Positions 707 through 19,519 of a stretch of 20,142 nucleotides of DNA are shown piece by piece (the stretch's first letter is position 1; each line of letters starts with the position of its first letter). The stretch comes from Deferrisomatales bacterium. GTDB lineage: Bacteria > Desulfobacterota > Deferrisomatia > Deferrisomatales > JACRMM01. A program made the translations under genes and the position numbers. The notes under the pieces were generated by a model. The model was not told the DNA's origin. It saw only the letters and a program-made list of their open reading frames with translations, and searched no databases. The DNA is taken from assembly GCA_033551855.1 (NCBI GenBank), contig JAWSUI010000062.1:1-20142 (forward strand), read 5' to 3'.

Positions 707-935
707 GCCACTGCTCGCGGCTCGCAAGAATCTGCCCCCCCAAGGGGAACCCGTCTTCCAGATACGAGAGGGCGGCTCGCTGGGCCGTTTCGTACCGCTC
801 CTCCTCTTCGACGAGCCTCTCCACGAGTACGGCGAGCAACCCGGTGACCGAGGTGTTCCTCCTCGCCGCGAGGACCTTCGCCTTTCGAATCGTTTCCGGG
901 CTGAGGGCAATCGTGAGGTTTTGTCGGGCTCTCAA
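696..935 (-). CDS. Putative ribbon-helix-helix antitoxin (DUF6364/CopG-like), about 79 aa
   Basis: RQNLTIALSPETIRKAKVLAARRNTSVTGLL fits an RHH pattern, and the C-terminus SREQWHER is typical of PIN partners. TTG start at 935 follows a GGAG; ATG at 962 is an alternative. Overlaps the PIN gene. Confidence 0.85.
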   Translation of the reverse strand: MRARQNLTIALSPETIRKAKVLAARRNTSVTGLLAVLVERLVEEEERYETAQRAALSYLEDGFPLGGQILASREQWHER

Positions 936-4600: not shown

Positions 4601-4823
4601 CCCCTATGACCGGATCGGCTTCGAGTGCGGTCTCGAGAACGACGTGTTCACGGTGCGAGGCCTCATCCGGGAGCATGGGGTAGAATACCTGGTGAAGCGG
4701 CCGTTCCTCGGGGGCATCAATGTGATCAACCAGAACCCGGACAATCGGATCCGCTTCTCGGACATGGTCCGGAGGCTGACGAGACTGACCCAGGAGAACA
4801 TCGGACCCGAAACCCGGCCCTGA
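1638..4823 (+). CDS. ydbH: AsmA-like/YdbH-family intermembrane lipid-bridge protein, 1061 aa
   Basis: TTG start after GGAG, one N-terminal TM helix, long Gly/Leu-rich amphipathic beta-strand repeats, and a C-terminal FPYDRIGFECGLENDVF...GINVIN...IRFSDMVRRL region. Directly followed by a YdbL-type gene, as in the ydbH-ynbE-ydbL operon. Confidence 0.75.
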   Translation: MSRGIKRMVLGLGAVLAVLAAFLVLVAAIGVYRPATMMPLAEKLLRPPGGTASLEGLEVGLRPPVLVLQGLDVRWADPDDRLRLERLRAVIVPGRVLGRDPWLRALEIHGLEVRRHLRGEGTGGPPDLSPLSWLFAVEDLTVREARFDVDVGGTEVTLDGLSLSLTPVGDTARALALEAGIGLRRAGATPTRGWIRGIGEITAEQTLALRLDLTVPSPAVSGLGGDLNANADLALSPKRMEVGALELELSGARLRWTSGEAWELGTGRASLAGGVGLDGSDPRVELSRLDVGDLLQGRGSVSGPTLARLSGRMDATLLDVGLLKAGLSPLLPADLRDLDAGGELLLRLEGSASRDGLSLALDARPEEIVLSWPSRGLEARLGGTLRVTAPLRGPTAETWAETALEGRLEAVADLARPPLAVRSVHLALPLSGSVSALRSRGASLSVGSGQVLWDGRTLPLGNLSAQGNMALDGAAVRIDAFRIESGALGRIEGEATLDAGVRTARLTGDSFPLGPLSDLLWAAADLPGQAWHAEGSAAVTARVDPAEGGERVAAELRLLGAGFSSPDGELLAQGLEGSLALESRTGPSPAAPQLMGELSLGRGEALWGTVYLDLSRSPLDVRLSGSPRSGALENAAASSRLQGFASLRVTGDLRREEDRWRHRGRLVVDEAALGPLFQTFVREPLAASRPDLGVLQAGGIGRLELEFEGLDRDADLRGRLEVRSAGLTAEGEPAMVSGLDLDLPLSYALSRTRGSAAPPAGAGWGRLRAESLALAGAELGPLDLPVALVPNRLYLGGTLEFPLLGGHLVVSRIVLEEPLSPDFRATFAADVEELDLGRTALERLTAEGSLRGALDPVTVDARELAAAGTLTGELFGGRLQARNLAVRHPFAAGREIAGDFEAIGMDLAQLSRALDVGQVTGRLSASLTGLRVAYGQPVAFHLRAESQPAKGVDQQVSLKAVNTISLLSTGSAIGGAGVSFMTSLFRQFPYDRIGFECGLENDVFTVRGLIREHGVEYLVKRPFLGGINVINQNPDNRIRFSDMVRRLTRLTQENIGPETRP

Positions 4824-4845: not shown

Positions 4846-5448
4846 ATGGGATCCCTTCGGAAGCTGTGGCCCCCGAACCTCCCCCCCCTGGCCCCCTTGA
4901 CCGTCGCGGCCTTCTTGGCCGCCTGCGTGACGGTGAACATTTACTTCCCGGCGGCCAAGGTGGAAGAAGCCGCGAAGCAGATCGTGGAGGAGGTCTACCA
5001 GGAAAAGGGGGAGAGACCCCAGACCTTCCGCGACCCCTCCCCGGGCACCGGCGGATGGCCGGCGTGGCTCGGACCCCGGGAGGCCCACGCCCAGGAGGCC
5101 GCGACCGTCAGCAACGCCGCCATCCGGGCACTGAAGGACCAGATCGCCCAGCGCCACGGCCAGCTCGCCCCACACTACGCACAGGGGCAGATCGGCATCG
5201 ACCGCGAAGGGTACCTGCAGGTGCGCGACACCGCCGGCCTCGGGCTGTCCGAGGTGGCGAGCCTGAAGCGCTTGGTGGAGGCGGACAACACAGCCCGACG
5301 CCAGCTCTACGCGGAGGTCGCCCGAGCCCTGAACATCGAGCCCCAGCAGGTGGGTCAGATCCAGGAGATATTTGCCCGGGAGTGGCGCGACAAAGCCCAG
5401 GCCGGCTGGTGGGTGCAGGACGACGCCGGGGTGTGGAACCAGCGATAG
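4846..5448 (+). CDS. ydbL: YdbL (DUF1318) family lipoprotein with YnbE-like N-terminus, 200 aa
   Basis: RBS GAGGAG, lipobox FLAA-C then VTVNIYFPAA. DUF1318-like core GQIGIDREGYL...LVEADNTARRQLYAEVA...FAREWRDKAQAGWWVQDDAGVW. Confidence 0.85.
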   Translation: MGSLRKLWPPNLPPLAPLTVAAFLAACVTVNIYFPAAKVEEAAKQIVEEVYQEKGERPQTFRDPSPGTGGWPAWLGPREAHAQEAATVSNAAIRALKDQIAQRHGQLAPHYAQGQIGIDREGYLQVRDTAGLGLSEVASLKRLVEADNTARRQLYAEVARALNIEPQQVGQIQEIFAREWRDKAQAGWWVQDDAGVWNQR

Positions 5449-5580
5449 TCTGTCCAGGTCTTGACCGGATTCAGACCCTCGACCACGGCTGAATTGTCAC
5501 GATGCAGCGGACCACACGGCAGGAGGTGTGCGACCGGGCGAACCCGATCAACCCGGGCGGCCCCCCAACCGGATTCGGCG

Positions 5581-6531
5581 TCAGCGCCGTCTCACGCGTT
5601 CGACGTGGACGTTGCCGGCTTCGTCCAGTGTGCCGCGAACCTGGACGTAGTCGCCGGGCCCGGGGCTGTCGTCGAACCGCGTGCGGGGGCCGATGACCAG
5701 GGGCAGGCCGTCGAGCTGCCGGCCGGGGTCGAGGGTTCCGTGCAGGCGCACGGACGCCCCTGCCGGGACTCTGGCGGGCGTCCCGTGTTCGTCGGGAGCC
5801 CCCTGGGCGATCCATTCCTCCACCAGGCGGGTCTCCGCCTCGTCCAGGTAGGGAGGGCCGTCCAGCGGCATGCGCGGGCGTGCCTGACCCCGGATGCGCC
5901 GGAGGAACTCGCTCGCCTCAGGGTGGCCGGGAACCACCCGCGCCCGGTCCCGGGTTGCGAGCGTCTCCTCGTAGGAAGTCAACCGATACCCCTCCGGTGC
6001 AGGGCCCATGATGCCGTCGGCCGCGTGGCACCGGGCGCACTGCGCCAAGAGGATCGGCTCCACCTCTCGATAGGTCACCAACCCGCCCGGTCCCACGGGC
6101 TGCGGGACCACGGGCACCGAGGGCGCCGCAGCGGCAGGGCCCTCCGCGCCCTTCTCCACCCAACGCTCCAGCAGGGCGATCTCGTCCTCGGACAGAAACG
6201 GGGGGCCGGTCATCGGCATGCGCGGCCGAGCAGTGCCCTTGACTCGGCGGATGAGCTCGCTGGCCGCAGGGTCGCCCGGCTCGACGACCGCCCCGTTGAC
6301 GCTCCCCTCCCGCAGGGCCTCATAGCCGTCGAGCCGAAGGCCGAGTGGAGCTGCTTCCCCGGAATGACAGATCACGCACCGCTGGTTCAGGACCGGAGCG
6401 ACGTCCGCGTAGCTCGGGTCGGCGGCGGAGACCGCCGGCATTCGGGTCATCCCCAACAGGAGGAAAGATGCGAGACAGATCACGCGGAGAACAGACCGGG
6501 AGGACATGGACCACGGGAACGTCGGCAGCAT
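5581..6531 (-). CDS. Exported dihaem cytochrome c (two planctomycete-type cytochrome c domains) with C-terminal DUF5666-like domain, 316 aa
   Basis: RBS GAGGAG and a hydrophobic signal sequence. Two repeated domains carry CVICH...PGDPAASEL...RMP and CARCH...PGHPEASEF...RMP. The C-terminus TRFDDSPGPGDYVQVRGTL is DUF5666-like. Confidence 0.88.
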   Translation of the reverse strand: MLPTFPWSMSSRSVLRVICLASFLLLGMTRMPAVSAADPSYADVAPVLNQRCVICHSGEAAPLGLRLDGYEALREGSVNGAVVEPGDPAASELIRRVKGTARPRMPMTGPPFLSEDEIALLERWVEKGAEGPAAAAPSVPVVPQPVGPGGLVTYREVEPILLAQCARCHAADGIMGPAPEGYRLTSYEETLATRDRARVVPGHPEASEFLRRIRGQARPRMPLDGPPYLDEAETRLVEEWIAQGAPDEHGTPARVPAGASVRLHGTLDPGRQLDGLPLVIGPRTRFDDSPGPGDYVQVRGTLDEAGNVHVERVRRR

Positions 6532-6593
6532 CGGGGTCTCCTCGAAAAAGAGCCCTTCCGGAAACTCAGTGGGTCAAGCAAGAGCAAGAACGA

Positions 6594-6661
6594 TCTCGCG
6601 CAGAGGCGCTGCGACGCGGAGGAATTCGTCTTTCCCTGCGCCTCTGCGGCTTTGCGCGAGA
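6594..6661. repeat. REP-like imperfect palindrome built of CGCAGAGG-type units
   Basis: Arms TCTCGCGCAGAGGCGC... and ...CTGCGCCTCTGCGGCTTTGCGCGAGA; the outer 9 bp are perfectly complementary. Confidence 0.7.
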
Positions 6662-6917
6662 ACACGATGGTTCCTCGCGCCCTCAGAAAACCCCGAAGCT
6701 CCCGAAAAAGCTCTTGCTGCCCCCTTCAGCGCGGACTTCCGAGTCGGGAGGGCCGGTACACTATAGCGAATTATGCGCCTTTCTTCTCGGCGGCGCATTC
6801 CCGGCGCGCCGTGTCGATGGCGCTACGCACCTGACCGGGTACGGAGGAGGCAGCCGAGGGGGTCAGCGGGGCGGTGGGGTCGGTGGGGGAGACCGTACCC
6901 CTGGGCAGGAACGGCGC

Positions 6918-6945: not shown

Positions 6946-7092
6946 TTCGATGGCATCAAGTTTTCCCTGCGACTGCGGCATTTCCTGTTGCGCCGGGGGA
7001 GCTCGGGGGTCCGCAAGGAAGCCCGGAGACTCACCACCCTCGGGGTAGAGCTGTGAAGGCCGTGTCTTGAATCCCTTGGGAGGAGAGCCATC

Positions 7093-8549
7093 GTGAAGAG
7101 ACGGGAATTCCTTCGTTTCGGGTCCTGCGGCCTGGCCGCTGTGACCTTCGGGACTGTGAGTCTCCCGAGCTTTCTCCGAACGGGCCGAGCGCATGCCGCC
7201 TCTCCATCCGGGGCGCTCCCTCTCACACTGATCGAAGCCAATGCCGAGATGGTCGACGGCACCCTCGTCTACTCCTGGGCCTTCGACGGTCCGGCCGGGC
7301 CGCGGATTCCGGGACCGCTGCTTCTCGCGACGGAGGGGAGAGGATCCGCCTGGAGGTCCGAAACGAGATTCCGAACGGGGGCGACCACGGCTTTGCCGTG
7401 CCGGGCGTTGTGGACAGTGGCCCCATCCCCCACGGGGCGACGGTGCCCGTGGAGTTCACCGCCCCGGAGGCCGGGACATACCTCTACTTTGACCCGTTCA
7501 ACGCGCCAGTCAACAGGGTCATGGGTCTGCACGGGGTGTTGCTGGTCACACCTTCCGCCGTGGGCAGCGATACCCCCTACAGCCGGCCGACTCCCAACGT
7601 CCAGCGCCTGTTCGACGATCTCGGGAGCCCCGGCTGGTCTTCCGGACGCGGCACGAACCACTTTCCGGGGCACCCCTGGGATCCCGACAGGACATGGATC
7701 TGGCTCTTCCATACCGTCGATCCGGACAAGAACGCCCTGCTGGACCCCGAGCGGCCCGGATCGGTCCCCTTCCTGTCGGCCTCCGAGTACCAGCAGGGCT
7801 ACCTGCCGCGCTACTTCACGCTGAACGGCAAGAGCGGTTACTTCGCGGCCGGCCACCATCCGGACGACGACGAGCATGCCTACACCGGGCCCTTGGCAGA
7901 TTACGACCTGCAGCGCGACATCGCGCCATTTGGCAACGTCGGCCAGCCCGCCCTCATCCGAACCGTCAACGCGGGCCTGGCCACCCACTCGCTGCACCCG
8001 CACGGCAACCACTACTACCTGCTCGCGGAAAATGGGACGGTACGCGACAACCTGTGGTGGGTCGACACCTGGACGCTGGCCCCACTGGACCGAAAGGATC
8101 TGCTGCTCCCCTTCATCCGCCCCCCGGAGATCCCCGTGTGGCCGCCGGTGGACGAGCTTTTCCCCCTGCAGTACACGATGCACTGCCACACGGAGATGTC
8201 GCAGACCGCGGCCGGCGGCAACTACCCCCAGGGGGCCGTGACCCACTGGCAGATCGACGGCGACGTGACCCCGGACGACGCGGTGATCCTCGTGGACCGG
8301 GCCGAGATCCGGGTTCGCTCCGGCCGCCTGCTCCTGGAGGGCCGCTGCTCGACGGCGGGGATCGTCCTCGACCTGCACCCCGGCGACGGTAGCGCGCCGG
8401 CCCTCGCGGAGTTTCCCGTGGGCGCGGACGGCCGATGGCGCGTCCAGGGCCGAGCCCTGCCGTTTCTCTCCAGCCGCACTGCCACGGTAATGTTCCACGA
8501 GGGCGACGTGGTGCGCGCGACCCGCACGGTCCCGTTGCAGCTGCGCTGA
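7093..8549 (+). CDS. Tat-exported two-domain multicopper-oxidase-like protein A (about 485 aa reconstructed), interrupted by a 1-nt frameshift at about 7335-7338
   Basis: RBS GGAGG and GTG start; MKRREFL...AHA is a Tat signal. PGPLLLATEG continues in the other frame as ERIRLEVRN...HGFAVPG...GTYLYFD. The C-terminal cupredoxin domain has HSLHPHG and HCH. Either a pseudogene or a homopolymer sequencing error. Confidence 0.85.
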
Positions 8550-8642: not shown

Positions 8643-9911
8643 ATGGCGCCCGTGACCATTCCTCGCGACGCCGGCCTCCCGGCTGCCGCCGACGTCGAGG
8701 ACACACCCTCCTTTCGCGGCTTCGCCTGCGACGTGCTGCAGTCGACGGACATCCTGGCCGATCCCGATGTCACGAACCTCTTCAGCGCCGAGTTCAAGGA
8801 ACGGCTGCAGCACGACATCGATGAGGGGGTGCTGGCCCCGGGGTACCGCTCCGTGAGGGTGCTGCGGACGCCCGACCGGGTGGAGCCGGACCGGCTTTTC
8901 ATACGGGAATTCGACCGGCGCGACCTCGCACTGCCGGTGAACGCGGCGGACGGAGCCACGGAGGAGATCGCGATCTGGGGCTTCACCGACCCCCTCGGGG
9001 CCGACGAGCTCGGGTTCCCCAGCCCTACGATCCGTGCGGTCCAGGGGGAGGTCGTGCACGTGTACCATCGACCCGGGCACGGGCCCCACACCATCCACTC
9101 CCACGGCATCGGCATGACCCCGGTGAACGACGGGGTGGGCCACACCACCTTCGAGCTGGAAGGGGACGGCTACATCTACCAGTGGCTGGCCCCCGAGCCG
9201 GGGACCTACCTCTACCACTGCCACCGCAACACGGTGCTGCACTTCGAGATGGGGATGTACGGGCTGCTCATCATCGACCCCCCCGTGGCGGGCGCCCCGT
9301 TCGCCGACGGCGGGCCCGGGTTCGCGGCCCGCCGGAAAGACCTGGTCCATTACGACGTCGAGGGGCTTTGGGTGATCGACGACATCGACCGCCGCTGGCA
9401 CGACGACCGGGAAGACGACGGGGTGCTCATTCACGGCCACGGCGCGGGCCTGCTCTGCCCCTTCCTGCCCTGGGACCCCGACCCGACGGAGCACCCGCAC
9501 CTGCACCGCTTCGAGCCCGACCGCTTCCTCATCTCCGGGGTCATGGCCGGCCAGGACGACCCCCTGATCACCCATCCAAGAGTTGCGGTCTCCGCCCGTC
9601 CGGGAGACACGATCCTCCTGCGCATTCTCAACGCCGCCTACACCCGGGCCCGCTTCGTCTTTCCATCCTCCCTCGCCGCCGAGGTCATCGCCGTGGACGG
9701 CAAGGCCCTGGGCGGCTCGGGACACCGGAGCTACTCCCAGCCCTTCCCCCTGAGCGAGCTGGACCACCGGTTCGAGCTGACCACTGCCCAGCGTTGGGAC
9801 GTGCTCATCCCCAATGCCCCCGCCGGAGAGTGGGAGGTGGGCGTGGAGTTCCGCGACTGGATCAGCGGGGCCCTTCTGGGGCGCGCTCGCACCCGGATCA
9901 CCGTGGGTTAG
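8643..9911 (+). CDS. Two-domain multicopper-oxidase-like protein B, 422 aa, no signal peptide
   Basis: RBS GGAGG; FPSPTIRAVQGE, HTIHSHG and GTYLYHCHRNTVLHFEMGMYG give a complete type-1 Cu motif. The second domain (ILLRILNA, VIAVDG, AQRWDVL) lacks His motifs. Confidence 0.9.
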   Translation: MAPVTIPRDAGLPAAADVEDTPSFRGFACDVLQSTDILADPDVTNLFSAEFKERLQHDIDEGVLAPGYRSVRVLRTPDRVEPDRLFIREFDRRDLALPVNAADGATEEIAIWGFTDPLGADELGFPSPTIRAVQGEVVHVYHRPGHGPHTIHSHGIGMTPVNDGVGHTTFELEGDGYIYQWLAPEPGTYLYHCHRNTVLHFEMGMYGLLIIDPPVAGAPFADGGPGFAARRKDLVHYDVEGLWVIDDIDRRWHDDREDDGVLIHGHGAGLLCPFLPWDPDPTEHPHLHRFEPDRFLISGVMAGQDDPLITHPRVAVSARPGDTILLRILNAAYTRARFVFPSSLAAEVIAVDGKALGGSGHRSYSQPFPLSELDHRFELTTAQRWDVLIPNAPAGEWEVGVEFRDWISGALLGRARTRITVG

Positions 9912-9959
9912 CAGGAGATCGTTCCACGGCTCACCCGGGCACCCCCATGGGGGCCGGGC

Positions 9960-10020
9960 CGCTGGCGGCTTGCGTGCCTTCCTGCCCGGCGGCGTTCGAT
10001 GGAGCGCCCCTTGCCCGCCT
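9960..10020. repeat. Dispersed intergenic repeat, copy 2 (copy 1 at 1074-1133)
   Basis: 25/28 identity over the core plus the shared downstream GCCCGCCT. Confidence 0.6.
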
Positions 10021-10106
10021 CTACCAACCTTCGCCGGCCCTTGACCTTTCTTCGCGCCGTGCTACGCACGTTCTCGCGGGTCCGCAGGAACGGCACCGCC
10101 ACTCTC

Positions 10107-10149
10107 CGCCGCGCAGGATCGCCATGCCCGAGCCGCTGCTCATCGCCCG
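10107..10149 (+). repeat. 43-bp perfect direct repeat of the RBS and first codons of the HerA-like gene (17495-17537)
   Basis: CGCCGCGCAGGATCGCCATGCCCGAGCCGCTGCTCATCGCCCG is identical at both sites, and both are preceded by CTCT(C). Confidence 0.95.
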
Positions 10150-10322
10150 CCCGCACCCCAGGTCCAGCACCCGCGCCCCGGGCCGCAGCTCCATGGCCCC
10201 GGCAAGCCACTCGGTCATCCACAGCGCGTTCGGCCCCATCTGGTTCTCGAGCACCCAAGCGGATCGTACCGGCTAGACCTCGGGAACTCGGGCTTGTGGA
10301 GGAAATCCAGCGGTTCCGCCAT
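10135..10322 (-). pseudogene. 5' fragment of a class I SAM-dependent methyltransferase, frameshifted and truncated
   Basis: RBS GGAGG and ATG at 10322. MAEPLDFLHKPEFPRSSRYDP, then a 1-nt shift near 10259, then WVLENQMGPNALWMTEWLAGAMELRPGARVLDLGCGRAMSS. It breaks off just after SAM motif I, inside the 43-bp repeat. Confidence 0.8.
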
Positions 10323-10537
10323 CGAGCACCTCCCGACCCGCTACCAGGCCCGGGCATCCCTCCGGGGGCGGCCGTGCGCTGTCCCGCCCGGGTCACCCGG
10401 AGGCTTGAAACCTCGAACGGCCCCGAGGCGCAGCAAACCTAGCACACGCGCCCCAAGGACTCCACCGGGCTCCCGCCGAAACCCCCGGCCCCACGGAAAT
10501 CCAGCCTCCCGTTCCCCGCCTGTCGGCGGCCTAGGAC

Positions 10538-10565
10538 TTGACAACGGGGGAATCTCGACTAGGGT
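10538..10565 (+). promoter_or_regulatory. Putative sigma70 promoter upstream of the E1 cluster
   Basis: Perfect TTGACA, 16 nt spacer, TAGGGT. Confidence 0.45.
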
Positions 10566-11068
10566 TTCTTTCAGGGCCCCCGAGCGGTCCCCCGGCAGGT
10601 CGACAGGCACCTCGACGGGCGGTGCCCCAGAGAAGTGGGCGGCTCCCGGTGTGGTTTCCTCAGCACGCCGGCGCGACGTACCTCTCCCCTGCCTTCGCGG
10701 AGGGAGCCATGAGAGGGTGGCTGCGAAAATTGCCCATACCAGGGCCTCGAGGGGTGCAATTACCGCTTGAGGCCTCCCGCCAACGAGATCCGACACGATC
10801 CCTCGCCCCCGGCTGTTCCTGATTTCCTGCCCCCGGCGGGCATTCGATCTGAACCACGCTCTCCGCCGCGGGGGCGGAGCACCAGACGTCCATGTGATTT
10901 CTTGCGCCAGCAGCGGCCCGCCGGAGGGTGCCGCGCTTTCGGGTCGCGAGATGAGCTTACCGCGTTGGATGCGCTTATGCGTCGCAAGCAGACCCGGTAC
11001 ACACCCCTGGAAAGAATCTCTCCAGACCCCGGATCCCCGTGGGGGCCGGTTTGCTCCGGAGGAACGTC

Positions 11069-12295
11069 ATGACAGAGAACACCAGCAGCCCACCGAAGAC
11101 CCAGGACCGCGACGACAGCGACTGGATCCCTCCCACCAGCCGGCGCGGCTTCCTCGCGGCAATCGCGGGGGCCGGCGCGGCGATTTCGCTCGGAAGCAAG
11201 CTCTCGTGGGCCAACGGCGAGATCGGCTTCTGGGCCAAGGATCTCTCGAACGAGCAGTTGATCCACCTCTACACGACGATCCAGCGCATCCGCTGGTTCG
11301 AGCGCACCTGCGTGGACAAGATGCTCACCGAGCCCGGATACCGCGGGTACAACCACTTCTACGTCGGCCAAGAGGCGGTGGCCACCGGCGTTTCCGCCGC
11401 CCTGAACAACACCGGCGGGGTCATGGAGGCCGACCTGGTCTACAGCACCCACCGGCCCTCCGGCCACGCCATCGCCAAGGGCGTGGACGTGAAGAAGATG
11501 GCCGCCGAGTACGAGTTTCGGGCCACGGGCCTCAACAAGGGCTACGCGGGCGAGATGCATATCGCCGACAAGGCGGTCGGCTTCATGGGGGCCGACGGCA
11601 TGATCGGACCCGGGTACGTGATCGCCACGGGGTCCGCGTTCGCGATCCGCGCCCGGGGTAGCAAGCAAGTCGTCGTCAACTACGGCGGCGACGGGACGTA
11701 CGCCACCCCCCACTTCCACAGCGCGCTGAACAACGCCGCCCTATTGAAGCTTCCGTTCATCTACGTGCTGGAGAACAACCTGTACCATCAGTACGCCCAC
11801 TACTCCTACTCCTGCCCCATGAAGGACATCGCCATCGCCGCCAAGACCTATGGGATCCCCGGGGTGGTGGTGGACGGACAGGACGTCATCCAGGTGTACA
11901 ACGTGGCCAAGCAGGCCGTGGACCGGGCGCGCGCCGGTGAGGGGCCGACCCTCATCGAGGCCAAGACCTACCGCTACTACAACCACTGGGGCGCCCCCGG
12001 CGCCAAACCCGGCGAGCTCGGCGCCTTCGGGTACGACCCGCTGGCGATCACGTCCTTCCGGCCGGAGCGCGAGGTGCGCGCCTGGATGGCCCGGGACCCG
12101 GTGGACATCTCCCGGAACACCCTCATCAGTTGGGGGGTGATGGACCGCGCGAGAGCCGACGCGATTGAGGCCGCCGCCAAGAAGGAGATGGTCGACGCCT
12201 TCGCCTGGGCCGACAAGCAGCCCCTCGGCAAGCCCGAGGACGGGCTCCGGCACGTCTTCATCGAGGGCACCGTCCTGCCCCGCCAGTTCGGCTGA
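11069..12295 (+). CDS. ThDP-dependent dehydrogenase E1 alpha subunit (AcoA/PdhA-like) with Tat signal peptide, 408 aa
   Basis: RBS GGAGGA. HFYVGQEA, STHRPSGHAIAKG, GEMHIAD, ThDP motif GDG-x-ENN, VDGQDV and GPTLIEAKTYR are present. The N-terminus reads SRRGFLAAIAGAGAAISLGSKLSWA. Confidence 0.93.
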   Translation: MTENTSSPPKTQDRDDSDWIPPTSRRGFLAAIAGAGAAISLGSKLSWANGEIGFWAKDLSNEQLIHLYTTIQRIRWFERTCVDKMLTEPGYRGYNHFYVGQEAVATGVSAALNNTGGVMEADLVYSTHRPSGHAIAKGVDVKKMAAEYEFRATGLNKGYAGEMHIADKAVGFMGADGMIGPGYVIATGSAFAIRARGSKQVVVNYGGDGTYATPHFHSALNNAALLKLPFIYVLENNLYHQYAHYSYSCPMKDIAIAAKTYGIPGVVVDGQDVIQVYNVAKQAVDRARAGEGPTLIEAKTYRYYNHWGAPGAKPGELGAFGYDPLAITSFRPEREVRAWMARDPVDISRNTLISWGVMDRARADAIEAAAKKEMVDAFAWADKQPLGKPEDGLRHVFIEGTVLPRQFG

Positions 12296-12364
12296 GCAAT
12301 CGGACCGGGGCGGCAGAAACGCGCGCAACAACCCCTCACCCGGCAAGCGGGAGGGAGGACGAAG

Positions 12365-13336
12365 ATGGCACGCAAGAGCTTCATGTACTCGGTCCTCGAG
12401 GCCGTCCAGTACGAGATGCAGAGAGACCCGAACATGATCTGGATCTTCGAGCTCACGCCCCCCGTGGCGTCGACGCCGGGGAAGCCGGTCATCAACCTGG
12501 AAAGGGAGTTCGGCCGCAAGCGGGTGGTCAACACCGGCATCGACGAGATGTGGATGGCCGCCTGCGTCCTGGGCGCCGGGCTGGCCGGCTCCCGGGCCGC
12601 CACCTACATCCCCTACCAGGGCAACGCGATGTGCTTCCAGATCCTGCAGAACCACGCCGGCAAGCTGCACCACATGACCGGCGGCATGGCCGAGATGCCC
12701 GTGGTCTTCGTGCTGGAGATGACCGGGCAGACCCCAGGCTTCGCCGGCCAGCACTCCGACTACGAGATCGACACCTACTACGCCCACATCCCCGGCCTCA
12801 AGACGGTGATCCCCTCCAACCCCACCGACGCCAAGGGGATGATGGTGTCCGCCCTGCGGGACCCCGACCCGGTGGCGTTCCTCTATGCCGCCGGCCTGCG
12901 GGACATGATCGAGGAAGTGCCCGACGAGCAGTACACCACGCCCCTGGACAAGGCCGCCGTCCGCTCGGAGGGGAGCGACGTGACGATCGTGGGCTCCGGC
13001 GGCGGGATGCCCGAGGTGCTCAAGGCCACCGACGAACTCCAGAAGCAGGGGGTGAAGGTCGAGACGATCGACCTGCGCTCCCTCAAGCCCATGGACACCG
13101 AGACCCTCGTGGCTTCCGTCCGCAAGACCAGGCGCCTTCTTGCCGTGGACCAGTCCTACTACACCCTCGGCCCGGCGGCGGAAGTGATCGCCCGCGTAGC
13201 GGAGAACGTGGACGGGGCCCGCTTCAAGCGCGTCGCATTCCCGGACGCTCCCCCGCCCGCCTCGCCGGAGATGTTCCTGTGGATGCGGCCGAACGCCGGC
13301 CACATCGTGGCGGCCGCGAAGAAGCTCATCGGCTGA
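12365..13336 (+). CDS. ThDP-dependent dehydrogenase E1 beta subunit (AcoB/PdhB-like), 323 aa
   Basis: FGRKRVVNTGIDE (cofactor-activating Glu), AGQHS, HIPGLKTVIPSNPTDAKG, DPDPV and ETIDLRSLKPMD. No signal peptide. Confidence 0.93.
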   Translation: MARKSFMYSVLEAVQYEMQRDPNMIWIFELTPPVASTPGKPVINLEREFGRKRVVNTGIDEMWMAACVLGAGLAGSRAATYIPYQGNAMCFQILQNHAGKLHHMTGGMAEMPVVFVLEMTGQTPGFAGQHSDYEIDTYYAHIPGLKTVIPSNPTDAKGMMVSALRDPDPVAFLYAAGLRDMIEEVPDEQYTTPLDKAAVRSEGSDVTIVGSGGGMPEVLKATDELQKQGVKVETIDLRSLKPMDTETLVASVRKTRRLLAVDQSYYTLGPAAEVIARVAENVDGARFKRVAFPDAPPPASPEMFLWMRPNAGHIVAAAKKLIG

Positions 13337-13404
13337 GAGTGCTCGGGTGCCGCCGCGGGCGAGCGGCGGCACCTCCCGGAGCCCACCCACGGAGGGCACC
13401 CCCC

Positions 13405-13722
13405 ATGGAAACGCGCAGTGCTCGTCCCGGCGCGATGGCGCCGCCGGAAGCCCCCGTCCCGCGGTGCGGCAACTGCGGCAGCGAGCAGGTTTGCAGCACC
13501 ACGGTCCGGTCGGCCTTCTGGCACGGCGACCGCCTGGTGGTCGTGGAAGACGTCCCGGCGCTCGTGTGCGATGCGTGCCACGAGCAGTTCTACGACGACG
13601 GCACCGTGGTGGTGCTCGACCTGCTCCAAGGGGACGGTTTCCCGCCCGAGCAGGCCCGCAGGGAGCTGCGCGTCCCGGTGTTCTCCTTCGAGGACCGGGC
13701 CCGCCGCCGAGGGTCGTCGTGA
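13405..13722 (+). CDS. YgiT/MqsA-type zinc-finger protein, 105 aa
   Basis: RBS GGAGGG. CGNC...LVVVEDVPALVCDAC.EQFYD matches the YgiT-type finger pattern. No HTH follows. Its stop overlaps the next start (GTGA). Confidence 0.85.
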   Translation: METRSARPGAMAPPEAPVPRCGNCGSEQVCSTTVRSAFWHGDRLVVVEDVPALVCDACHEQFYDDGTVVVLDLLQGDGFPPEQARRELRVPVFSFEDRARRRGSS

Positions 13723-14297
13723 GGCCCGGGCGGGGTTGGCCGATCGCCGCAGCGTTCGCGGCCCTCCTGCTGGGGATGGCCCCTGGGCCGGCCGCGGCCC
13801 AGCTCGACTACGCCTTCATGCCCAAGGGGGGCAAGGCGCTGTTGCTCGAGGTCCTCTCCGGCGCCGGAGCCGGGCTGAGCTTCGAGGAGATGCTCTCCGC
13901 CCGACGAACGGAGGACGAGTGGCGGGAGCTCCTGGCCCCGTGGGCCGAGGGCCTGAGCGTCCGCGAGCGGCAGACACTGGCGGTATACCTCGAGGTGAAC
14001 CTGCCGGTGCGGGATCCCGGGGCGGTCGCCGCCAAACGGGGGGACCCGGGGGCCCTCTACGCCGCGCTTCCGCGCGACGGCCGGGAACTGGCCTGGCACG
14101 AGTGCCAGTTCTGCCACTCCCTCTTCACGAGCCACCTGACCCAGGACCGCGGGGTGCAGGCGTGGATGAACATGTTCGAATCGCCCTTTCACCGGGAGAT
14201 GAAGATGACGCCGCAGGAGCGCGAGGAGTTCTCCCGCTACTCGGCGATCAACATGCCCATGAAGATGGAGGACGTGCCGCCGGACCTGCGTTTCTGA
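13719..14297 (+). CDS. Exported monohaem cytochrome c, paralogue 1, 192 aa
   Basis: GTG start coupled to the upstream stop; Sec signal ending AAA-Q; CQFCH; alignable along its length with the next gene. Confidence 0.82.
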   Translation: MRPGRGWPIAAAFAALLLGMAPGPAAAQLDYAFMPKGGKALLLEVLSGAGAGLSFEEMLSARRTEDEWRELLAPWAEGLSVRERQTLAVYLEVNLPVRDPGAVAAKRGDPGALYAALPRDGRELAWHECQFCHSLFTSHLTQDRGVQAWMNMFESPFHREMKMTPQEREEFSRYSAINMPMKMEDVPPDLRF

Positions 14298-14361
14298 CAG
14301 CCCCGCGGCGGGAGCCGCCCTCGGGCGGGCGTCGTGAGGCCTTCCGGGGAGGTTTGACACC

Positions 14362-14964
14362 ATGAGGTGCAAAGGACTGGGCGTGATCGGCGCGCTGGCC
14401 CTCGCCGCGGTGGCGCTGGGCGGGCCCGCCCGGGCAGAGTTCGACCCGATCTTCGACTTCATCCCTCTCGGCGGCCGTTCGCTCCTTGCCGAGGTGCTGG
14501 CGGCCAAGCCGCCGGCGGACGAGGTGCGCGCCCTCCTCACGGGGCAACGCTCCGCCGAGAAGTGGCTCGGCTACCTGAAGGACCGCACGGCGGCCCTGAG
14601 CGGATTGCAGGGCCTCGCCGACGAGGAGCTGGCGACCCTCGCGGACTACCTCGCCGTGAACATGCCCCTCCCGCCGGACCGGGTGCCCGCGGATCCGGCC
14701 AGGGCGAACTGGCCGAAGGTCCTTCCCCGGGACGGGCGCGACCTGGCGCTGGAGTACTGCCAGTCCTGCCACATCATCACGGTCACCGTCACCCAGGACC
14801 GGACCGTGGAGCACTGGCTCGGCACGATGAACAAGCCGAGCCACATCGAGATCAAGCTCTCGGCGAAGGAGCGCGAGGCGCTGGCCCGCTACCTGGTCCT
14901 CAACGCCGGGATCCCGATCGACCTGATCCCCGAGGACCTTCGCGCCGGCGGGGCCTCGTACTGA
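14362..14964 (+). CDS. Exported monohaem cytochrome c, paralogue 2, 200 aa
   Basis: RBS GGAGG; Sec signal ending ARA-E; LPRDGRDLALEYCQSCH...TQDR...W. Confidence 0.85.
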   Translation: MRCKGLGVIGALALAAVALGGPARAEFDPIFDFIPLGGRSLLAEVLAAKPPADEVRALLTGQRSAEKWLGYLKDRTAALSGLQGLADEELATLADYLAVNMPLPPDRVPADPARANWPKVLPRDGRDLALEYCQSCHIITVTVTQDRTVEHWLGTMNKPSHIEIKLSAKEREALARYLVLNAGIPIDLIPEDLRAGGASY

Positions 14965-15025
14965 CGCGCGCGCAGGGCCCCGGGGAGCCGCCGTCCGAGA
15001 CCCGAACGCTGCAGGGGAGCCGGCC

Positions 15026-16498
15026 ATGCTCTTCACGTCGTTCGGCTTCTTCGTCTTCCTGCCCCTGGCGCTGGTGGGGTTCGCCGCCGTGCCGGCCCGC
15101 CACCGCTGGCTGTGGCTGCTCCTGGCCAGCGCCGTCTTCTACGGCCTCTGGCAGCCGGCCAACCTCCTGTACCTGGGGGCCATGACGCTCGCGGTTCTCG
15201 GCTGCGGGCGGGGCCTCGACCGCGCCCGCGGACGCCGCCTCGCCGATCTGATCCTCGCCGGCGGGCTCGTCCTCGTGCTCGGCTCCCTGTTCGCCTTCAA
15301 GTTCTACGACTTCCTCGCCGCGGAGCTCGAGGGCTGGGCGGGGCCATTGCTGGGCCTGGAGCCCGCCGGCCTCCTGCCCCGCATCGGCGTGACGGCGCCG
15401 GCGGGGTACTCCTTCTACGCCTTCGCAGCGGCCAGCTACCTCGTGGACGCTCGGGCGGGCCGGCTGCCCGCCGAGCGAACGTGGGGCCACACGGCTCTCT
15501 ACGTGGCCTACTTCCCGAAGATCTTCGCCGGCCCGATCGAGCGGGCCACGACCTTCCTGCCCCAGGTCTGGTCCGGCCTGCGCGCGAACCCCGAGATGGC
15601 CGTCCTGGGCCTGCAGCTCATCGGGTGGGGGCTGTTCAAGAAAGTGGTCATCGCCGACAACCTAGCCCCGGTGGTCGACCGGAGCTTCACCATCGCCGCA
15701 TACGCGCCACCGATGGAGCTACTGCTCAGCGTCTATTTCTTCGCCTTTCAGATCTACTGCGACTTTTCGGGATACACCGACATCGCCGTCGGGGTGTCGC
15801 TCCTGTTCGGCATCCGCCTGATGGAGAACTTCCGCCGCCCGTACCTTTCGGTGAGCACCGCGGAGTTCTGGGGAAGCCGGTGGCACATCTCCCTGGGGCA
15901 CTGGTTCCGGGACTACCTGTTCATACCCCTGGGAGGCAGCAAAGCCGGGCCGATGCGCCGGTACCTGAACATCATGGCTGTCTTCACCGTGAGCGGGCTG
16001 TGGCACGCCGGCCTGGGCTACGGGGTGGGCTGGACTTTTCTCGTTTGGGGGGCGCTCAACGGCCTCTACCAGTGGGTCGGCGTCGGGACCGCCCCGGTCT
16101 GGCGGGGGCTGGGAGAGCGGATGCCCCGGGTGCGCGCCAGCACGGCCCTGCGGGTGCTGCGGGCGGTCCTGACCTTCCACCTGATCGCGATCGCCTGGGT
16201 CTTCTTCCGGGCCTCTTCGGTGGGCGACGCGCTTCTCGTCCTGAAGCGGATCGGTACCAGCCTGGGACAGATCGCCGGGCTCGTGACGCGCTACCCTTAC
16301 AGCGTCGACCACTATCTGGCCTTCGGCCTCATCGCCCTCCTTCTCGTCATCGAGGTGCTGGACGAGCGGCGCTCCATCTTCCAAAGGCTCTCCGCCGCGC
16401 CCGTTGCTCTGCGGTGGGGCGTGTACTACTTGGTCCTGTTCTCGCTGCTCATCCTCGGCCGCTGGCAGGCCAAGGAGTTCATCTACATGCAGTTTTGA
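15026..16498 (+). CDS. MBOAT family O-acyltransferase (AlgI/PatA/DltB-like), 490 aa
   Basis: Polytopic. YFPKIFAGPIER, QIYCDFSGYTDIA, ENFRRPY, EFW..RWHISL..WFRDYLFIPLGG, SGLWH (catalytic His) and C-terminal FIYMQF. Confidence 0.95.
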   Translation: MLFTSFGFFVFLPLALVGFAAVPARHRWLWLLLASAVFYGLWQPANLLYLGAMTLAVLGCGRGLDRARGRRLADLILAGGLVLVLGSLFAFKFYDFLAAELEGWAGPLLGLEPAGLLPRIGVTAPAGYSFYAFAAASYLVDARAGRLPAERTWGHTALYVAYFPKIFAGPIERATTFLPQVWSGLRANPEMAVLGLQLIGWGLFKKVVIADNLAPVVDRSFTIAAYAPPMELLLSVYFFAFQIYCDFSGYTDIAVGVSLLFGIRLMENFRRPYLSVSTAEFWGSRWHISLGHWFRDYLFIPLGGSKAGPMRRYLNIMAVFTVSGLWHAGLGYGVGWTFLVWGALNGLYQWVGVGTAPVWRGLGERMPRVRASTALRVLRAVLTFHLIAIAWVFFRASSVGDALLVLKRIGTSLGQIAGLVTRYPYSVDHYLAFGLIALLLVIEVLDERRSIFQRLSAAPVALRWGVYYLVLFSLLILGRWQAKEFIYMQF

Positions 16499-16544
16499 CC
16501 GGCGGGCGCCCCGGGGAGCCCGCAGTGGGGGACGCCAAACGCCC

Positions 16545-17483
16545 ATGAGAGCTCTCGGCAAAGCGGCTGTGCTCTTCACCGCCATCGGCGTGCTGCTCTA
16601 CGGCGGCCTGTACTGGACGGCGGAGCGGCTCGTCTACCGCACCGGGCGCACCAACCCCTTCTTCAAGATGGCCACCACAGAGGACCGATCCCTCGACTGG
16701 GTCATCCTCGGCGCCTCCCACGCAATGCCGCTCGACTTCGACGATTTCAACGCCCACATGGAGGCCGCAACGGACCTACGCATCCTGAACCTCGCGGCAC
16801 CCGGCACGGGACCGCTCTACACCCGGTTCGTCCTGGAGCACTTCCTGCGCGGGCGCCGAACCGGGAACGTCCTCTACGTCCTGAACTCCTTCGCCTTCTC
16901 GTCTCGCGCGTGGAACGAGGACCGCTTCGCCGACGCCGGCCTGCTCCGGCGCACCCCCTTCGAGCCGTCCCTGGCCCGACACTTGCTGGAGTACAGCCGG
17001 CGCCACGGCGTGTCGGCCCTCGCCGTGCTCGACTACGTGACGGGCTTCTCCAAGATCAACAACCGGGGGCGCTTCCAGCCGGACATCTGGGAAGGGGAGA
17101 AACAGTTCGACCGGACCCACCGCCCGTCGGCCGTGTCCGACCGCAAGAGAATCAGTTATCTTTACCCGAGCCCGCCGGACGCCGCAGCTCGCGAGCGGTA
17201 CCTGCGGGAGTTCACGGCCCTCCTCACCCTGGCCAGGACCAGGGGCGCCCACGTGGTGGCCGTCAAGATGCCGGTGCCCAAGCGCTTCCACACCCGCCTC
17301 CCGGAGGAAGAGGTCTTCGACCAGGCGGTCAGGAAGCTTCTCGCGGCCGGCGGCGCCGACTTCCACGACTTTTCCCTGACGATGGACGAGCCGCGCTTCT
17401 ACTTTGACACCGACCACCTGAACCGCACGGGGTTGACGGAGTTCTTCGAGCGACACCTGAAGGAGATCCTCCTCACCCCCTGA
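16545..17483 (+). CDS. Membrane-anchored SGNH-fold (DltD/AlgJ-like) acyltransferase/esterase partner, 312 aa
   Basis: N-terminal TM, VILGASH (block I Ser), NLAAPG (block II) and FDTDHLN (block V DxxH). Directly follows the MBOAT. Confidence 0.8.
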
Positions 17484-17511
17484 CATGCCCCTCTCGCCGC
17501 GCAGGATCGCC

Positions 17512-18996
<1,485 letters not shown>

Positions 18997-19195
18997 ACGT
19001 CGGTCCTCGGCCGGTACGCCGGTGTACACGAGCATTGTGGCGGCCCCAGGAGGTTGTCGCATCGGTATGAATGGAAACTCCCGCCTGGTGTTTCCTGATC
19101 TCTCCCCCTTGGGCTGACCGGCAAAGGGCCCGACACTTTGGTCTGGTGTCGTCGTCAGGACGGTTCGATCGCGCGGCGGCAGGACCCCTTATGCC

Positions 19196-19249
19196 TTGAC
19201 CTGAGGGGCGCGTCGGGGCTAGGTTGAATCATGCCGTTGTGCTGCACAA
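19196..19249 (+). promoter_or_regulatory. Putative sigma70 promoter and palindromic operator of the right-hand TA-like operon
   Basis: TTGACC-18 nt-TAGGTT (19196-19225). Perfect inverted repeat TTGTGC-T-GCACAA (19237-19249) lies just before RBS GAGGAGG. Confidence 0.6.
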
Positions 19250-19264
19250 AACGAGGAGGTGCCT

Positions 19265-19519
19265 GTGCCGGCGTTGAAGACGGTGGGTAGCAGCGGGCAG
19301 ATCGCCCTTGGCAAGCAGTACGCGGGCCGCCACGTATTGGTGGATCAGGTCGAACCCGGCGTCTGGATCGTGAAGCTCGGAGAGTTCATCCCGGACAACG
19401 AGCGATGGCTCCACACAGAGGAGGCTCGGGATGCCCTCGACGAGGCCGTGCGCTGGGCCGAGGAGCATCCGTCGGAGCCCACCGACCTGGACGACCTGGC
19501 TACAGCGGTCGAGTCGTGA
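19265..19519 (+). CDS. Putative AbrB/MazE-like antitoxin, 84 aa
   Basis: Strong RBS. KTVGSSGQIALG resembles the AbrB-type N-terminal hairpin, and the C-terminus is acidic. GTGA overlap with the next gene. Confidence 0.7.
   Translation: MPALKTVGSSGQIALGKQYAGRHVLVDQVEPGVWIVKLGEFIPDNERWLHTEEARDALDEAVRWAEEHPSEPTDLDDLATAVES

Follow-up and report, generated by a model that had tools for sequence, protein, structure and literature searches.

A conserved seven-gene cassette with a Tat-signal E1 dehydrogenase, two cytochromes c and an acyl transfer pair points to keto-acid oxidation outside the cytoplasm

Introduction

The alpha2beta2 E1 enzymes of the pyruvate, acetoin and branched-chain 2-oxoacid dehydrogenases are the closest described relatives of an E1 pair encoded at the head of a seven-gene cassette, which we analyse here on a contig (JAWSUI010000062.1) of a Deferrisomatales bacterium. 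The entire contig of 20,142 bases (C62) is referred to as the window; its G+C content is about 69% and it belongs to a host genome of 4.24 Mb in 132 contigs. The alpha2beta2 enzymes are cytoplasmic and act together with lipoyl-E2 and E3, whose genes are commonly adjacent. Like them, the cassette E1 has the two-subunit domain set, the thiamin diphosphate (ThDP) motif, the activating glutamate and both active-site histidines. It differs from them by a twin-arginine translocation (Tat) signal, by the lack of E2 and E3 genes in 80 loci, by a loop that is 15 residues longer and by scores below the equivalog cut-offs. In addition, it is always followed by a zinc finger protein, two cytochromes and an acyl pair.

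The enamine intermediate on ThDP can be oxidised without lipoamide, as is done by PoxB, pyruvate oxidase and pyruvate:ferredoxin oxidoreductase (PFOR), and in these enzymes the acyl-ThDP is resolved by water, phosphate or coenzyme A (CoA). The chemistry proposed below for the cassette would be of this kind, with a non-lipoyl acceptor oxidising the enamine. PoxB, pyruvate oxidase and PFOR belong to another family, have flavin adenine dinucleotide or iron-sulfur clusters within their own polypeptide and work at the cytoplasmic face, whereas the acceptors of the cassette would be separate haem c proteins. An exported catalytic unit encoded with its own small cytochrome c is also found in the SorAB sulfite dehydrogenase and in quinohaemoprotein amine dehydrogenase (QHNDH). 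The cassette resembles them in this respect, but their catalytic cofactor is molybdenum or a quinone and that of the cassette is ThDP.

The envelope acyltransferases of the MBOAT-SGNH type form the third comparison. According to the available part of a 2025 JBC paper (PMC12148441), PatA loads acetyl from acetyl-CoA onto the tyrosine of an FXYXXF motif and PatB moves the acetyl to peptidoglycan; in the Dlt system, the FXYXXF motif is located on DltX and carries D-alanine to the serine of DltD. Both pairs run outward, from a cytoplasmic thioester to the tyrosine, to the serine and to an acceptor outside. With PatA/PatB, DltB/DltX/DltD and AlgI/AlgJ/AlgX, as far as they are covered there, the cassette pair shares the MBOAT histidine, a membrane-anchored SGNH partner, a Ser/Asp/His triad and a DltD-like fold, and with PatA it shares the FXYXXF tyrosine shuttle fused to the MBOAT at its C-terminal end. 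Unlike in these envelope systems, the cassette has no gene for a carrier protein or ligase, and its MBOAT-SGNH subfamily was found whole only beside an exported E1 and cytochromes. It differs from the Dlt system in that the shuttle motif is on the MBOAT itself and not on a DltX microprotein, and it scores below the DltB and DltD equivalog cut-offs.

The cassette points to an undescribed oxidation of keto acids outside the cytoplasm. The reading that we prefer, tentatively and as somewhat short of probable, is a periplasmic ThDP oxidoreductase of the E1 type that passes electrons to its own cytochromes, works without lipoamide, E2, E3 and NAD, and constitutes a horizontally mobile module. The original prediction, made from the window alone, knew of no described system with this architecture, and our literature searches agree with it: neither an exported E1 nor an E1 with cytochromes nor this gene set was found described in the literature searched, which mostly did not extend to subscription journals. 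The available text of PMC3305326, PMC2908626 and PMC10888616 contains no such genes; the supplementary tables of Tat substrates and regulons of these papers could list homologues. A 2026 review of Tat names iron-sulfur, molybdenum, nickel-iron, flavin, F420, NADP, haem, pyridoxal phosphate and cobamide as cofactors, and its available part contains no mention of thiamin, TPP or ThDP (PMC13673990).

Results

Seven genes are inherited together

The cassette (11069-17483, forward strand) consists of seven close-packed genes on one strand, coding for E1 alpha, E1 beta, a YgiT-type zinc finger protein, the cytochromes CytA and CytB, an MBOAT protein and a DltD-like SGNH protein. Real genes in the window were picked out by their third-position G+C content. 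Seven co-directional genes with gaps of up to 70 nt and a single overlap had been predicted, and the gaps are indeed, in order, 69, 68, -4, 64, 61 and 46 nt. The overlap is a GTGA, in which the stop codon of the zinc finger gene meets the GTG start codon of CytA. The E1 alpha gene starts with an ATG that has GGAGGA six bases before it. No terminator-like site was found on the forward strand within the cassette or in the surrounding region 9800-19400, and no sigma-70-like promoter site was found in that region; no Rfam family matched in the window.

Relatives of E1 alpha number thousands. The best 120, with identities of 76-92%, are predominantly alpha- and betaproteobacterial, and a small number of sources label such relatives Tat-signal proteins. 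A scan of about 185,000 species-representative genomes with E1 alpha yielded at least 142 relatives; the locus counts in this work use the best 80, and the gene content of these loci was read by tblastn with the proteins of the window. All seven genes are present in each of the 60 loci with at least 6.3 kb past the E1 alpha start. Fifty-nine of the 60 also have the same order and strand, and in the sixtieth, L071, the MBOAT/DltD-like pair is inverted directly after CytB. The 20 shorter loci contain every gene expected ahead of the contig end. The linkage is kept while the identity of MBOAT drops to 45% across the loci. The commonest flanking gene family occurs in 16 of the 80 loci. The seven-gene arrangement is far beyond chance. 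Whether cytochromes, MBOAT and SGNH protein co-occur with the Tat-E1 alpha had been left to a neighbourhood search, which shows that they do so in all 60 complete loci, found in Alpha- and Betaproteobacteria and under a few other labels.

An E2 or E3 gene had not been seen in the window, and tblastn was negative as well, both in the window and in the 80 loci. The same queries match elsewhere in the host genome, where they identify three E2-like and five E3-like genes. The opposite pattern, in which E1 pairs would usually be accompanied by E2/E3 or lack the cytochromes and MBOAT, was sought but did not occur (0 of 80 loci with E2/E3, 60 of 60 with the cytochromes and MBOAT).

Some copies are irregular. 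In L029, a stop codon interrupts CytB and the E1 beta match is shortened; E1 beta of L050 also contains an internal stop. Both copies may reflect decay or sequencing errors. In L008 (Xanthobacteraceae), about 2 kb lie between E1 alpha and an intact E1 beta, and the insert contains a frame of 208 residues (10216-10842) with a partial Transket_pyr domain that looks like a partial E1 beta duplicate. Plasmid copies of E1 alpha were not found at E <= 1e-60.

E1 has a Tat signal and conserved catalytic residues

E1 alpha (11069-12295, forward strand, 408 aa) is the ThDP-binding subunit (PF00676, 4.6e-53). Its residues 1-48 (11069-11212, forward strand), SRRGFLAAIAGAGAAISLGSKLSWA, are predicted to be a Tat signal peptide that is cleaved ahead of NGE in the following NGEIGFWAKDL. 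The TAT_signal_seq profile (TIGR01409) scores 16.8 bits with a cut-off of 16.7. All 78 loci that include the N-terminus have a Tat motif RRxF(L/F)K and a hydrophobic stretch, as well as an AxA site ahead of GEIGFWAKDL, in line with the claim in the original prediction that E1 alpha carries a Tat export signal. A regular expression for the RR motif matched 73 of the 80 loci; the other seven comprise five with RRxFFK and two that are truncated by the end of their contig. All three features, RR motif, hydrophobic stretch and AxA site, are kept also in E1 alpha clades that are only 37-52% identical. The host genome contains genes for TatC and for cytochrome c maturation of the ResB type; CcmE was not found in it. 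Together, the conserved N-termini support an E1 that is built for export by Tat. E1 beta (12365-13336, forward strand, 323 aa), which has the Transket_pyr and Transketolase_C domains and no signal peptide, is presumed to be exported bound to alpha, by "hitchhiking" as described for other Tat passengers.

Alternatively, the Tat-like N-terminus might be non-functional, and a cytoplasmic E1 would use a lipoyl-E2 encoded elsewhere. E2 and E3 genes are present elsewhere in the host genome, as this would require, and the TAT_signal_seq score is barely at the cut-off. But the export features are found in every available N-terminus and in the distant clades, the products of the neighbouring genes are all extracytoplasmic or membrane proteins, and none of the 80 loci contains E2 or E3, which makes a cytoplasmic E1 extremely unlikely.

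The two subunits are related to pyruvate dehydrogenase (PDH) E1 and scored far under the PDH equivalog cut-offs of NCBIfam. E1 alpha reached 229.9 bits against TIGR03182, below the equivalog cut-off of 393.85, and the score against NF006667 was 194.1 with a cut-off of 321. The nearest solved relatives are human PDH E1 alpha for the alpha subunit (1.6e-31) and Geobacillus PDH E1 beta for the beta subunit (1.5e-51). The GDG...NN ThDP motif of E1 alpha is kept and aligns with that of human E1 alpha. Histidine 306 of alpha, which is at least 90% conserved (72 sequences), aligns with the His before the SMSDPG phosphorylation loop of human E1 alpha, and the loop after it, which lines the entrance of the active site, is 15 residues longer than in the human protein. 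In E1 beta, which is unusually conserved (mean column identity 84% in 63 sequences), E61 and H130 align with chain positions 59 and 128 of 1w85_B, respectively, and both are invariant in the 63 sequences. We take E61 to be the ThDP-activating glutamate, and the alpha His ("GHS") and beta His128 to be the active-site residues of PDH E1. Judged by these residues, the E1 looks catalytically complete and altered at the entrance of the active site. Some E1 homologues are named acetoin:DCPIP (dichlorophenolindophenol) oxidoreductase by JGI.

The zinc finger is shared with distant Tat-E1 clades

The third gene (13405-13722, forward strand) codes for a YgiT-type zinc finger protein of 105 aa without signal peptide (TIGR03831, 45.7 bits, cut-off 20.2). 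Its four cysteines are invariant in 76 sequences. No helix-turn-helix (HTH) domain was detected with TIGR03830 (18.9, cut-off 61.8); unlike MqsA-type antitoxins, the cassette protein is a YgiT finger only.

A metagenome scan with distant Tat-E1 clades identified ten loci in which the match reached the signal region, two of which (L099 and L100) belong to the clade of the cassette itself. In four others (L094-L097), Tat-E1 alpha is 37-52% identical and a YgiT finger follows next after E1 beta in all four; in L095-L097 it is present in tandem. Only L095 and L097 extend past the zinc finger, and neither has a cytochrome, MBOAT or SGNH gene downstream. Because the distant loci keep the finger without the additional genes, the zinc finger seems to belong with the E1, and the other four genes seem to be an add-on of one clade. 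The old core would accordingly be Tat-E1 alpha, E1 beta and zinc finger, to which CytA, CytB, MBOAT and the DltD-like protein may have been added in the proteobacterial clade. Many of the distant Tat-E1 alpha subunits end in ...PRQLA(D/T)CPLY. In a profile search for distant Tat-E1 in the phylum of the host, 107 of 301 genomes matched; almost all matches started from model position ~50, as ordinary cytoplasmic E1 alpha does, and a few from 22-32.

We propose that the zinc finger protein is either a cytoplasmic escort or maturation factor of the E1, or a co-exported subunit of it. A small cytoplasmic protein encoded beside a Tat substrate suggests, by analogy, an escort that binds the signal peptide, of the redox enzyme maturation protein (REMP) kind. 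The concept of REMP escorts for Tat substrates is given in the available part of PMC13673990.

Two cytochromes are found with the E1

CytA (13719-14297, forward strand, 192 aa) and CytB (14362-14964, forward strand, 200 aa) are assigned as exported mono-haem cytochromes c with the haem motifs CQFCH and CQSCH, respectively. They are paralogues with 40% identity, and their N-termini, judged by eye, are signal-like and end in small residues. C120, C123, H124 and H149 of CytA are at least 97% conserved (73 sequences; numbering of a 183-residue stretch starting at 13746), and C133, C136, H137 and H161 of CytB are invariant (61 sequences). Each cytochrome thus has a further invariant His about 25 residues past the CxxCH motif, and no Met is invariant. 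Because of this second His and the lack of an invariant Met, His/His ligation is probable for both haems and a rather low potential is expected.

CytA has no Pfam or NCBIfam match. The Cytochrome_CBB3 profile reaches 16.6 bits, below its cut-off of 27, and 52 of 61 members match it at E <= 1. The AlphaFold model of CytB (pLDDT 84) has no Foldseek match at E <= 1e-3. VIA-align showed that both halves are class-I-cytochrome-c-like (Z up to 5.7), with a haem motif only in the second half. There are weak leads from CytB to the haem domain of QHNDH (Atlas 0.94; 11 of 61 members match PF09098 at E <= 1), and in fold and features CytB has a weak likeness to SorB and to this QHNDH domain (Z <=5.7).

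The two cytochromes have near-invariant C-terminal tails, ...VPPDLRF in CytA (14277-14297) and ...LRAGGA(S/T)Y in CytB (14941-14964), and share an F-x-(F/M/I)-P-x-GG motif at the N-terminus. In the decidedly unlikely membrane-split form of the enzyme described below, the tails RAGGASY and DLRF might be arms that reach into the funnel of the E1.

Relatives of CytB were found in none of 400 other genomes of the phylum of the window and in one of 400 other Alphaproteobacteria, again as an adjacent CytA/CytB pair. Three carrier genomes contain exactly two copies each of the cytochrome family, CytA and CytB.

The exported E1 could also be non-oxidative, acting on a compound of the envelope or periplasm by decarboxylation, C-C cleavage or carboligation, with the cytochromes serving sensing or an unrelated electron path. 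The distant Tat-E1/zinc finger loci, which show no cytochromes, the remodelled active-site loop and the JGI label acetoin:DCPIP oxidoreductase on some homologues are compatible with such a function. Yet every complete cassette has two dedicated cytochromes that were found nowhere else as sampled, and both active-site His of the oxidative E1 enzymes are conserved. We consider non-oxidative chemistry very unlikely.

Most copies appear to be under low-oxygen control

In 52 of 76 loci, an FNR/FixK-type box, TTG[AG][TGC]N4[ACG][TC]CAA, is located between -200 and -1 of E1 alpha; most of these boxes are at -54 to -130. The density of the box upstream of E1 alpha is 3.8 per kb, compared to 0.115 per kb in the remainder of these loci. 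TTGAN6TCAA with one mismatch is present in 17 of the 24 loci without the strict box, a number that has no chance control and was not counted. Thirty-nine of the 80 loci have at least one flank gene for a nitroreductase, HSP20, BON, Usp, hibernation factor, CBS or Crp/FNR protein. In most carriers, the cassette appears to be under low-oxygen (FNR/FixK-type) control. Neither an FNR-type box nor a sigma-70-like site nor an Rfam match is found in the non-coding stretch of 670 nt that precedes E1 alpha in the window (10397-11068).

With the FNR-type box and with Usp, HSP20, BON and nitroreductase genes as neighbours, the cassette resembles the low-oxygen stress islands of FixK/FNR regulons. The lxa locus of Burkholderia cenocepacia is reportedly such an island, with a similar FNR-type box and similar kinds of neighbours. 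The cassette was not found described in low-oxygen loci, and no such genes are mentioned in the available parts of PMC2908626 and PMC10888616.

MBOAT and the DltD-like protein have the features of a tyrosine-shuttle acyltransferase

The MBOAT gene (15026-16498, forward strand) codes for 490 aa (PF03062, 82.9 bits, cut-off 27) that end in ...EFIYMQF. Its nearest solved relative is DltB (5.6e-20). H327 (in WHAG), Y487 and F490 are at least 97% conserved (66 sequences), and F-[IV]-Y-x-x-F, which is FIYMQF in the window, is found at the extreme C-terminus of all 64 orthologues with an intact end (that of L033 is cut by the contig end). Conserved arginines are R27, R173, R285, R295, R311, R395 and R463. 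The DltD-like SGNH protein (16545-17483, forward strand, 312 aa) has an N-terminal membrane helix, which was judged by eye and from the helix in the AlphaFold model, and a putative triad S58/D288/H291. G56, S58 (GASH), G87, G89, N124, D288, D290 and H291 (DTDH) are invariant in 54 sequences; of these, S58, G87/G89, N124, D288 and H291 make up the SGNH blocks. The sequence match to DltD is weak (Pfam DltD 21 bits, cut-off 22.7). The AlphaFold model has a pLDDT of 96.2, and a Foldseek search with it returned DltD for all of the top ten matches (E 1.4e-7 to 4.8e-6), with SGNH esterases and PatB ranking next. The equivalog scores are 128.8 for MBOAT against TIGR04091 (cut-off 375) and 23.1 for the DltD-like protein against TIGR04092 (cut-off 150). 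With His327, Tyr487 and Ser58, the pair has every sequence feature of a complete tyrosine-shuttle acyltransferase.

A DltD-like profile search in 400 Alphaproteobacteria identified the cassette of the centre genome (G401), a decayed fragment in G462, a distant pair in G760 and nothing else. Besides the centre genome, a whole DltD-like protein of the cassette type was never found outside the cassette in this set. The MBOAT of the G760 pair is 35% identical to that of the window, and the pair, with an SGNH-like partner, is encoded beside PBP1A and amidase genes. The fragment in G462 (L209, 7772-8065) is a lone DltD-like C-terminus with 65% identity that covers residues 212-309; no other cassette gene is near it. 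In protein collections the DltD-like family comprises 893 clusters, a number comparable to the 956 from a search with CytB, and all are named hypothetical or generic cytochrome. As far as sampled, the CytA/CytB and DltD-like families are confined to the cassette.

An acyl relay formed by MBOAT and SGNH protein was part of the original prediction. The FXYXXF tail in 64 of 64 orthologues with an intact end and the DltD fold place the pair with the documented pairs, which run outward (PMC12148441, available part); the inward direction to CoA, which had been offered as one option, is therefore without precedent.

In such an inward relay, acetyl would be transferred from ThDP to Ser58 and Tyr487 and, by an MBOAT running in reverse, to cytoplasmic acetyl-CoA. 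The enzyme would be a membrane-split 2-oxoacid dehydrogenase in which the pair replaces E2 and the cytochromes replace E3 and NAD. This would give all seven genes a role and explain their strict co-inheritance, and two one-electron carriers would fit the two electrons removed. Several of the conserved MBOAT arginines would fit a CoA pocket, genes for ADP-forming acetyl-CoA synthetase are present in the flanks of 5 loci, and low-oxygen control suits a route that is independent of NAD. The transfer from acyl-ThDP to a thioester is thermodynamically feasible overall, but the step from a serine ester to a tyrosine ester is uphill and we know of no MBOAT that runs inward. The nearest relative found outside the cassette, the G760 pair, is also an ordinary MBOAT/SGNH-like pair. 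That the tyrosine tail is known to swing as an arm from one active site to another suits the relay, but PatA and DltB were shown to load this tyrosine from a cytoplasmic thioester (both in the available part of PMC12148441). We regard the inward relay as unlikely. In its full form, a 2-oxoacid dehydrogenase split across the inner membrane that makes acyl-CoA inside without lipoate, E2, E3 and NAD, by means of the DltD-like serine and the tyrosine arm of a reversed MBOAT, it is decidedly so.

Another explanation is that the cassette holds two separate units that share an island and a regulator. The E1/cytochrome oxidoreductase would then hydrolyse the acyl group as PoxB does, and an ordinary MBOAT/SGNH pair would O-acylate peptidoglycan or another envelope polymer from acyl-CoA in low-oxygen stress. 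The pair has all canonical features of such an acyltransferase, distant Tat-E1 clades appear to lack it, and the many stress genes in the flanks suggest an island whose functions are diverse but co-regulated. In L071 (12862-15253), the sole locus with an inverted pair, it is convergent with CytB, so that it can form a separate transcription unit. However, the seven genes occur together in all 60 complete loci in spite of MBOAT identities down to 45%, and unrelated functions seldom stay linked through such divergence and transfer. The restriction of the whole DltD-like protein to the cassette in the sampled Alphaproteobacteria argues in the same direction. That the two halves are unconnected seems unlikely to us.

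The cassette was probably acquired horizontally

Concatenated E1 alpha and beta sequences place the window inside a Hyphomicrobiales clade of their tree (12 rows, support 95) next to L004, with 89% identity. Because the host belongs to another phylum and its copy nests among Hyphomicrobiales, the simplest reading is that the host genus probably acquired the cassette horizontally. A second genome of the same genus has the whole cassette with different flanks; in gene order, its proteins share 92% (E1 alpha), 95% (E1 beta), 65% (zinc finger), 76% (CytA), 79% (CytB), 79% (MBOAT) and 77% (DltD-like protein) identity with those of the window. A misbinned contig was considered and rejected: the GC content of the contig is 68.7% (genome mean 69.6%), its tetranucleotide distance has rank 34 of 88, and the cassette is present in the same-genus genome as well.

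Cassette copies were also found in bins labelled Polyangiaceae (L012), Gemmatimonadota (L033), Flavobacteriales (L042) and Anaeromyxobacteraceae (L058). The tree neighbours of these four are near-identical proteobacterial copies, which might be due to transfer or to binning errors.

Neighbouring genes

A gene for a HerA_C/DUF853-type P-loop ATPase (17485-18996, forward strand; PF05872, 8.6e-221) begins one base past the cassette. It is linked to the cassette in none of the 80 loci, and its homologue in the same-genus genome is located on another contig. This gene and the upstream frames 1638-4823, 4846-5448 and 5461-6834 were examined as an eighth component and rejected, as tblastn showed that they are not conserved with the cassette; 5461-6834 is probably no real gene. 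Frame 1638-4823 (forward strand) codes for a protein of 1061 residues without Pfam match and is followed by a DUF1318 protein gene (4846-5448, forward strand), an arrangement that presumably resembles the enterobacterial YdbH/YnbE/YdbL.

Directly upstream of the cassette, there are two divergent cupredoxin/multicopper-oxidase-like genes (7071-8549 and 8643-9911, both forward strand). In the same-genus genome G804, a CueO-like multicopper oxidase gene (L204, 5828-7342) is convergent with the cassette and lies beside genes for a Cache/PAS histidine kinase and a LuxR-type regulator. A link of multicopper oxidases to the cassette was not seen in the 80 other loci. Further upstream in the window, a di-haem cytochrome c that is unrelated to CytA and CytB is encoded at 5581-6531 (reverse strand; PSCyt1, 1.7e-17), and near the contig start a PIN-domain protein at 284-910 (reverse strand; PF01850, 2.1e-11).

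Discussion

For the periplasmic E1 that we prefer, the following course can be envisaged. E1 alpha and beta would fold and bind ThDP in the cytoplasm, where the zinc finger protein would escort or mature both, and the complex would leave by Tat on the signal peptide of alpha, carrying beta along. In the periplasm, the E1 would attack a 2-oxo compound, most likely a 2-oxoacid such as pyruvate, possibly an acyloin or diketone. The two electrons of the enamine would pass singly to CytA and CytB and from there to periplasmic acceptors of a low-oxygen respiratory chain. MBOAT and the DltD-like acyltransferase would take part in the same process. The sequences themselves show the gene set, the export signal, the catalytic residues, the folds, the shared inheritance and, in most carriers, the box; the substrate, the passage of electrons to the haems, what the zinc finger does and how the acyl pair is connected are our additions.

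Artificial acceptors of one or two electrons, for instance ferricyanide and DCPIP, are reduced by E1 enzymes. The same ThDP enamine is oxidised without lipoamide by PFOR and pyruvate oxidase, via iron-sulfur clusters or flavin. Both make electron transfer from the enamine to a cytochrome chemically plausible.

Several points weigh against this reading. The contact between E1 and the cytochromes is presumed, and a complex prediction with E1 alpha 49-408, E1 beta, CytB 26-200 and haem gave a score of 0.00 without a verdict, which speaks neither for nor against binding. The active site of a normal E1 is at the bottom of a deep funnel, so that direct access of a haem would need remodelled loops or a relay. 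The identification of the cytochromes combines the haem motif with a weak fold likeness, with Pfam scores below the cut-off and Z <=5.7. L095 and L097 lack cytochrome genes, and the ancestral exported E1 may use another acceptor or non-oxidative chemistry. The FNR-type box has no exact copy in the window, where no site within 2 mismatches of TTGATNNNNATCAA is found in 10397-11069, and it is absent from the same-genus relative G804 as well. RNA runs with the cassette sequence were not found; one DNA run was listed. Finally, it is not obvious why an MBOAT/SGNH pair that runs outward in the canonical way would chemically need an E1.

It is the strict co-inheritance of the genes that places the acyl pair in the same process as the E1. 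The direction that we favour is the canonical outward one, in which acyl-CoA would donate to an acceptor in the periplasm or envelope that is tied to the E1 reaction; this is a possible assignment that we make with reserve. That the pair instead takes up the acyl group left on ThDP is a rather unlikely alternative to it.

If true, an exported and ThDP-loaded E1 would be a new cofactor class for Tat and a new place for 2-oxoacid oxidation. Transfer of its electrons to cytochromes c would be a fourth solution for the oxidation of the enamine, beside lipoamide, flavin and iron-sulfur clusters, and would tie keto-acid oxidation directly to a low-oxygen respiratory chain without NADH. Should the dehydrogenase be split across the membrane, it would represent the first exported ThDP enzyme, the first E1 linked to haem c and the first MBOAT that runs inward. 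The strict pairing also offers a tractable case for asking whether MBOAT/SGNH pairs can trade acyl groups with a further enzyme, or even work in the inward direction. Although widespread, the cassette is rare, with matches in at least 142 of about 185,000 species genomes and roughly 900 protein clusters in metagenomes. Since its cultured, harmless carriers include Ramlibacter (R. lithotrophicus RBP-1), Chelativorans (C. xinjiangense lm93) and Roseovarius (R. marisflavi DSM 29327), it is directly testable whether keto acids are oxidised in this way outside the cytoplasm.

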